In this document: positions 783 to 1,004 of the stretch, one piece after another
Layout of the letters: every line of letters starts with the position of its first letter
How positions within the stretch are numbered: position 1 is the first letter of the stretch
From: a virus
Lineage: Duplodnaviria; Heunggongvirae; Uroviricota; Caudoviricetes
Reading direction: 5' to 3' (one strand)
DNA: 7,228 nt
IMG/VR virus record: IMGVR_UViG_2778261341_000003
The notes under the pieces: model-generated
What the model was told of the DNA's origin: nothing
Databases searched by the model: none
What the model saw: the letters and a program-made list of their open reading frames with translations, nothing else
Program-made: the position numbers and the translations under genes

Positions 783-1004
783 ATGGCAGACATCATTGAT
801 TCAGCATCAGAAATTGAAGAATTACAGCGCAACACAGCAATAAAAATGCGCCGCCTGAACCACCAGGCTGTATCTGCCACTCATTGTTGTGAGTGTGGCG
901 ATCCGATAGATGAACGAAGACGCTTGGCCGTTCAGGGTTGTCGGACTTGTGCAAGTTGCCAGGAGGATCTGGAACTTATCAGTAAACAGAGAGGTTCGAA
1001 GTGA
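783..1004 (+). CDS. TraR/DksA-family C4 zinc-finger protein (lambda Orf73-like)
   Basis: 73 aa with CxxC..(17 aa)..CxxC (CCECGDPIDERRRLAVQGCRTCASC), the pattern of TraR/DksA-type zinc fingers. Size and position match lambda Orf73. Stop overlaps the next gene's GTG start. Confidence 0.7.
   Translation: MADIIDSASEIEELQRNTAIKMRRLNHQAVSATHCCECGDPIDERRRLAVQGCRTCASCQEDLELISKQRGSK

Follow-up and report, generated by a model that had tools for sequence, protein, structure and literature searches.

The locus considered here raises the question of whether a 73-codon reading frame, found in a 7,228-nucleotide stretch of viral DNA (the window), encodes a phage member of the TraR/DksA proteins, and of when and to what end such a protein would act. 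The reading frame (positions 783-1004, + strand) begins with an ATG, ends with a TGA stop codon at 1002-1004, and specifies the 73-residue protein MADIIDSASEIEELQRNTAIKMRRLNHQAVSATHCCECGDPIDERRRLAVQGCRTCASCQEDLELISKQRGSK. A Shine-Dalgarno-like AGGGA lies at 768-772 (+), 10 nt 5' of the ATG, and a ribosome-binding site is annotated at the homologous position in the Lambda imm21 record (OM418625). Two antisense reading frames, at 793-954 (53 aa) and 932-1147 (71 aa), found no support and were treated as chance.

The initial annotation of this DNA, made from the sequence alone, had placed the protein in the TraR/DksA family by its cysteine finger, had named lambda Orf73 as the phage example of this size, and had proposed a candidate host-takeover factor carried in the lysogen. 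The analyses presented below favor, with a probability that we put at about 95%, the view that this is the orf73 of a lambdoid prophage, encoding a putative RNA polymerase-binding protein of the TraR branch that would act as lambda Orf73 does. Nothing in the data contradicts the orf73 reading.

Relationship to lambda orf73 and to the TraR branch

At the protein level the window product and lambda Orf73 align without gaps and are identical at 71 of 73 residues, the differences being I30V and V49A. The lambda sequence used for this comparison is the translation of the matching stretch of lambda DNA; the lambda reference record has no CDS annotated at that place, and the homologous place in the Lambda imm21 record is labeled 'DksA/TraR C4-type zinc finger domain-containing protein'. 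When positions 600-1100 were compared with phage records by megablast, 183 records matched, and the match to lambda covered the whole query at 97.8% identity (lambda 30296-30796, minus strand). The two genes are alike in their products, which share a length of 73 aa, the same six cysteines, DxxDxA, E44xxR47L48 and E64, as well as in their surroundings, which comprise orf61 upstream, ea22 downstream, a GTGA stop/start overlap and an upstream hairpin. Lambda orf73 itself lies at about 30380-30601 on the complementary strand, within the exo-xis region, and the window gene is likewise flanked by orf61 and ea22, with exo lying farther upstream and xis/int farther downstream. Given full-length identity and synteny, the reading frame at 783-1004 is identified by sequence as an allele of phage lambda orf73. 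The earlier comparison with lambda Orf73 was thus sound and, with a 97% identical protein in a syntenic position, understated.

Conservation was counted among 79 members of the Orf73 clade, each at least 58% identical. The residues at which the window protein departs from lambda represent the majority state at both sites (V30 in 54 of 79 members, A49 in 67 of 79), so it is the laboratory lambda allele that is the minority form; the protein that has been assayed, I30/V49, is slightly unlike the allele common in nature, V30/A49. Position 49 adjoins the E44-x-x-R47-L48 motif, which faces beta-prime Si3.

Assignment to the family is supported by several profiles. Residues 34-64 match Pfam PF01258 (zf-dskA_traR) with 35.4 bits (E = 1e-08), which exceeds the gathering score of 24.9, while residues 1-71 match PHROG 54, 'DksA-like zinc-finger protein' (E = 3.3e-26). 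The NCBIfam model for TraR proteins from phages and conjugal plasmids, TIGR02419, covers residues 3-64 (E = 6e-15) with a score of 55.6 bits, which is below its curated cutoff of 59.7. Since the validated lambda Orf73 scores 54.7 bits and is likewise below the cutoff, this shortfall is a property of the cutoff and not of the present allele; the TIGR02419 cutoff excludes the whole Orf73 clade. Sequence matches in the PDB were to YbiI (2KGO, E = 2.4e-05) and to F-plasmid TraR (5W1S and 6N57, E about 1e-04), and the TraR alignment begins at residue 1 and sets D3 and D6 opposite D3 and D6 of TraR.

The finger, with the spacing that had been claimed for it, is confirmed by residue count: C35-C36-E37-C38 is separated by 17 residues (39-55) from C56-A57-S58-C59. 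This arrangement constitutes a predicted C4 zinc finger, the module of which spans positions 885-959 (+), with C35 at 885-887, C38 at 894-896, C56 at 948-950 and C59 at 957-959, and holds also R46/R47 (918-923), which align with R48/R49 of TraR, and the two cysteines outside the C4 set, C36 and C53. The DxxDxA codons (D3-I-I-D6-S-A8; 789-806, +) stand at the start of the N-terminal helix, and E64 in the C-terminal helix aligns with TraR E66. Within the 79-member clade these positions are nearly invariant: D3 is found in 78 members, D6 in 79, A8 in 79, C35 in 79, C38 in 77, R46 in 78, R47 in 77, C56 in 78, C59 in 77 and E64 in 79. An exhaustive search recovered 584 cluster representatives at E values up to 0.001. 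The same ten hallmark positions stay dominant in a family sample of 116 sequences, in which 114 representatives of 50%-identity clusters were joined by F TraR and the window protein, with D3 in 92, D6 in 108 and A8 in 102; F TraR has the same residues at all of them.

From the 79-sequence alignment, AlphaFold2 produced a model with a mean pLDDT of 85, rising to 93-96 over residues 31-70; it consists of one helix (3-27), the finger and a second helix (57-69), with no coiled coil. Its best Foldseek matches in the PDB are TraR molecules in complex with E. coli RNA polymerase, 6n57_M (TM 0.57) and 5w1s_M, both at probability 1.00 and together spanning TM 0.51-0.57, followed by YbiI and DksA/DksA2. 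The rmsd to the TraR matches, approximately 4 A, reflects the angles between helices, and a comparable helix-angle result has been described for lambda Orf73 (PMC8614690). The confidently folded model of the window protein differs in this regard from a RaptorX model of wild-type lambda Orf73, which was largely unstructured (PMC9239242).

Taken together, a profile score above the PF01258 threshold, a C4 finger of the CxxC-17-CxxC type, DxxDxA on a single helix, an Arg pair corresponding to TraR R48/R49, an acidic residue in the C-terminal helix and a TraR-like fold place the protein in the TraR branch of the DksA/TraR family. The initial annotation had proposed a profile search, an alignment with lambda Orf73 and F-plasmid TraR, and a structure prediction as checks, and would have given up its assignment if there were neither a family match nor a related fold; searches of PF01258, TIGR02419 and PHROG 54 were positive, both alignments were positive, and the closest solved structure is TraR within the RNA polymerase complex.

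DksA proper (TIGR02420/NF033459), a ppGpp-dependent protein of about 150 aa with a coiled coil, was considered and rejected: the window protein has 73 residues and a single N-terminal helix without a coiled coil, and it matched none of the DksA equivalog models. With E. coli DksA (about 151 aa) and YbiI (2KGO) it shares the PF01258 C4 module and, by prediction, secondary-channel binding, whereas it is about half the size of DksA, has a single N-terminal helix in place of the coiled-coil domain and, as a TraR-type protein, would need no ppGpp, judging from lambda Orf73 (PMC9239242).

The likeness to F-plasmid TraR (5W1S, 6N57) includes size, N-terminal helix, a C4 finger with 17-residue spacing, C-terminal helix, retention of D3, D6 and A8, and the equivalence of R48/R49 and E66 of TraR to R46/R47 and E64. 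Nevertheless, identity between the two is only about 31%; the window protein has the additional C36 and C53, carries L48 where TraR has K50, and comes from a phage early operon rather than a conjugation operon. In activity, F-plasmid TraR and lambda Orf73 are alike in inhibiting rrnB P1 with an IC50 of about 50 nM independently of ppGpp, but TraR activates thrABC, argI and rpoH P3, and lambda Orf73 does so weakly, if at all. Other phage members of the same family, namely P2 Orf82, VP882 Orf61, VHML Orf8 and Xenorhabdus Gp34, also bind RNA polymerase and inhibit rrnB P1 (PMC9239242). In comparison with the window protein these homologs are more divergent, and they are less potent on the E. coli enzyme (IC50 250-800 nM); some phage TraR homologs are without D3 or A8, whereas the motif of the window protein is complete.

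Predicted action on host RNA polymerase and physiological role

Lambda Orf73 has been studied directly by Gopalkrishnan et al. (mBio 2022; PMC9239242). When purified, it rivals DksA for binding to RNA polymerase about as well as TraR does, and it inhibits rrnB P1 (IC50 about 50 nM) as well as rpsT P2 without ppGpp (PMC9239242). Most of this activity is lost upon substitution of either acidic tip residue (D3N or D6N), and it is abolished by D3N/D6N and by D3A/D6A (PMC9239242). Expression of lambda orf73 from pL in a defective prophage reduced precursor rRNA to 29% and rpsT mRNA to 45%; the protein slows host growth, and when mitomycin C was used for induction the phage yield was 3-4 fold higher with an intact orf73 (PMC9239242). 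Activation of thrABC, argI and rpoH P3 by lambda Orf73 was weak, if present at all, and the authors point to the two extra cysteines as a possible cause (PMC9239242).

Structures of TraR bound to RNA polymerase reveal that the DxxDxA tip reaches the active-site region, that R48 contacts the rim helices and R49 contacts beta-prime Si3, and that the C-terminal helix contacts beta Si1. We infer the same mechanism for the window protein because all of these contact residues are kept and because only two residues differ from the assayed protein; binding in the secondary channel and ppGpp-independent regulation of rRNA and ribosomal-protein promoters by this allele are predicted from lambda Orf73, from which it departs at 2 of 73 residues, and we hold with high confidence that this allele and this prophage would behave as lambda Orf73 does.

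According to the proposed mechanism, orf73 would be transcribed within the N-antiterminated pL early transcript following induction or infection. The N-terminal helix of its product, tipped by D3xxD6xA8, would enter the secondary channel of the host RNA polymerase, with the C4 zinc-finger domain (R46/R47) seated against Si3 and the rim helices of beta-prime, while the C-terminal helix (E64) contacts beta Si1. Open complexes at rRNA and ribosomal-protein promoters would be destabilized, with no ppGpp needed, and the outcome would be slower host growth, diversion of resources to the phage and a several-fold larger burst. The earlier proposal of a candidate host-takeover factor is supported in this sense, the proposed function having already been shown for lambda Orf73 (PMC9239242). 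What this would mean for the strain is that the prophage carries a predicted ppGpp-independent inhibitor of host rRNA and ribosomal-protein transcription, expected to act on induction.

A different account retains the same RNA polymerase-binding mechanism and holds that its main role is pro-lysogenic, or else a block to the initiation of host replication, the 'bin' phenotype connected with the cluster of orf73, ea22, ea8.5 and orf55. Deletion studies in lambda and Stx phages, as outlined in a review, associated the loss of orf73 with lowered host survival and lysogenization efficiency (PMC8614690), and a study by the Wegrzyn group, as cited in that review and discussed in PMC9239242, described a pro-lysogenic role and a lower yield in the presence of orf73. 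When in-frame deletion and point mutants that avoid polar effects were used, however, disruption of orf73 brought a 3-4 fold lower yield on induction (PMC9239242). Older work, as cited in PMC9239242, ties the orf73-ea22-ea8.5-orf55 cluster to the block in host replication initiation, and in keeping with this dnaA P2 is inhibited by lambda Orf73 in vitro, albeit with an IC50 of about 420 nM, while at single-copy expression of lambda orf73 dnaA mRNA was reduced weakly, if at all (PMC9239242). On balance we regard this account as unlikely. The physiological role is disputed, and the dispute concerns the use to which the effect on RNA polymerase is put and not the identity of the protein.

Expression of orf73 and state of the prophage

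In lambda, the region from orf61 to orf73 is read by N-antiterminated transcripts from pL. Transcription of lambda orf73 from pL is subject to repression by CI, and when pL was uninduced rRNA and rpsT levels were unchanged by the presence of orf73, with ratios of 0.95 and 0.93 (PMC9239242). Because orf73 is a gene of the pL operon, silenced by the repressor in a lysogen, the window gene would be expected to act after induction or infection and not during lysogeny; the expression route is deduced from synteny, as the window begins at the end of exo and pL, N and the repressor gene lie outside it. The initial description of a factor carried in the lysogen stands as to its presence there, with the correction that its action would come only with induction or infection. 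A promoter scan found no sigma-70-like promoter on the + strand before orf73, which is consistent with read-through from pL.

In the gap between orf61 and orf73, a consensus scan and RNA folding located a hairpin resembling a terminator (705-729, +), with the sequence AGGGAGC-TAC-AGGCTCCTT and a T run after it. Lambda has the identical hairpin, as do 52 of 71 related loci, and it may render orf73 expression dependent upon N antitermination. Folding of positions 685-790 gave a structure that contains this hairpin, though the region as a whole was no more stable than shuffled sequence (z = -0.01) and offered no evidence of a larger structured RNA element. Scans of the whole window against Rfam, at the gathering threshold, and for tRNAs returned nothing, and the gap therefore holds no known RNA family. 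No name for the hairpin at 705-729 appeared in the literature searched, which yielded only papers using tL3 in recombineering plasmids. A second terminator-like hairpin occurs at 107-129 (+), inside orf60a, and by coordinate arithmetic falls near lambda 31265-31287. Lambda tL3, located just downstream of exo and kept after exo in Red-recombineering plasmids, is presumably the equivalent of this second hairpin and not of that at 705-729.

At its other end, the orf73 stop codon overlaps the GTG start of ea22 (GTGA, 1001-1004), an overlap that is also annotated in lambda, and none of the 71 loci examined departs from the 10-nt junction GAAGTGAGCG. The overlap and the identical junction suggest translational coupling of orf73 and ea22.

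The surroundings of orf73 are those of a lambdoid prophage. Positions 1-1400 are collinear with lambda DNA and contain the last codons of exo, orf60a (DUF1317; 37-228, +; Pfam E = 3.7e-38), orf63 (DUF1382; 201-392, +; Pfam E = 3e-31), orf61 (403-684, +), orf73 and the first ~100 codons of an ea22-like gene (1001-2011, +; Pfam Ead_Ea22, E = 1.9e-27) that begins with GTG at 1001. Additional Pfam neighbors include DUF4222, a DUF1233 excisionase and a tyrosine integrase with an arm-binding domain, and beyond int lie the host genes yecE (DUF72), yecN, cmoA and cmoB. Over the segment comprising int and xis, identity is ~94% with phages that convert to Stx1a or Stx2a and with a record that bears the name 'PPyecE'. 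In the best-matching complete genome, that of strain ST130, the same site is occupied by a lambdoid prophage, whose homologous gene bears the RefSeq name 'TraR/DksA family transcriptional regulator'. This neighborhood identifies the gene as the orf73 of an E. coli lambdoid prophage that has yecE as its integration site. Differences from lambda are the 428-aa integrase, the DUF1233 excisionase and the integration site, yecE rather than attB-lambda, together with a long, Stx phage-type orf61 and an ea22 that diverges after about position 1300.

With respect to the attachment site, the yecE (DUF72) reading frame begins with a GTG at 4035, before the integrase gene (2783-4069) has ended, and positions 4035-4069 therefore belong both to the 3' end of int and to the 5' end of yecE; the same overlap is annotated by RefSeq in ST130. 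Judging from this overlap, the prophage seems to have entered yecE at its 5' end and to provide the gene with a replacement N-terminus.

Whether the prophage is still functional bears upon a further alternative, namely that orf73, though intact, is carried silently by a defective or cryptic remnant which has lost the capacity for induction, and has no present function in the strain. The window holds only the left end of the prophage, yet no reading frame from exo to xis is broken within it, and xis and int are likewise intact. Some part of the window is matched by every one of the 5426 complete E. coli genomes, and at least 80% of it in one place by only 2 of the 5426; in the closest complete genome, ST130, N, cIII, kil, gam, bet and exo nevertheless stand upstream in the standard order of the pL operon, along with a LexA-family repressor. 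The region downstream is mosaic, with a 336-aa ea22-like reading frame that stops after 16 residues of a DUF551 domain, whereas the orf73 allele matches the clade consensus and bears no damaging change. We consider the silent-passenger alternative improbable, and return to an orf73 that would act upon induction or infection.

As for the ea22-like reading frame itself, its 336 aa compare with 182 aa in lambda, and only the first ~100 codons are common to the two. ST130 has separate ea22, XF1762-family and DUF551 genes in this place and aligns in two pieces, and the reading frame looks like a mosaic or deletion-fusion product.

Extra cysteines, prior annotation and minor observations

The two cysteines that stand outside the C4 set differ in their conservation. 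C53 is found in 76 of 79 clade members and in 63 of 116 family representatives, C36 in 25 of 79 clade members; C36 is thus variable, and C53 is kept far more widely than its description in the literature as an 'extra cysteine' suggests. It is conceivable, but we judge it very improbable, that C53 has a function, perhaps as an alternative ligand for zinc or in redox-sensitive switching, and could explain the weak activation of promoters, or that V30/A49 alter activity relative to I30/V49 of lambda. Finally, a chance reading frame or a generic small zinc ribbon with no tie to RNA polymerase regulation is ruled out for practical purposes, for although short C4 ribbons are common in many unrelated proteins and the lower Foldseek matches include ribosomal proteins and LIM, FYVE and RING fingers (all with E above 0.4), the PHROG 54 and TIGR02419 matches run along the full length rather than the finger alone, the motifs other than the finger (DxxDxA, R46/R47 and E64) are conserved in the 79-member clade and the 116 representatives, TraR itself is the best fold match and the characterized lambda Orf73 is 97% identical.

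All of this has been published, from the gene and its family to the structure class and the mechanism, and the exact protein has already been named publicly: 881 public contigs carry it under the name 'TraR/DksA family transcriptional regulator', and it belongs to a 90%-identity cluster of 939 members. Among viral contigs, 524 encode a relative. The practical value of the present assignment lies in correct annotation, and there is little in it as discovery.

Several minor observations concern the genes upstream. Orf61 is present in the window in its long form, read either as 93 aa from the ATG at 403 or as 71 aa from the ATG at 469, the latter being the form annotated by RefSeq in ST130; the long form is covered over its whole length by PHROG 303 (E = 1.2e-35), and a TGA occupies 400-402, just before the ATG at 403. 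The long form fills the ~225-nt 'empty' gap between orf61 and orf73 of lambda. Lambda Orf61 has been described as one that 'appears truncated' with respect to Stx phages (PMC8614690), and lambda has one extra G after a run of seven A residues (window ~529-535), which shifts the frame and truncates Orf61. Exact-pattern scans of viral contigs for the two frame states gave 2 versus 13 matches, too few to inform, and an analysis of the 71 related loci was used in their place: the long form is found in 64, the lambda-type truncation in 2, one of which is lambda itself, and 5 could not be classified. The name 'cell division protein ZapA', given to some NCBI cluster members, looks like a doubtful annotation transfer.

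Lastly, a run of nine G residues at 188-196, at the end of orf60a and the start of orf63, is three bases longer than its lambda counterpart (CGAGGGG) and adds a residue near the C-terminus of Orf60a, which has 63 aa here and 60 aa as annotated in lambda; the run may represent a homopolymer-length polymorphism or a site prone to sequencing error.
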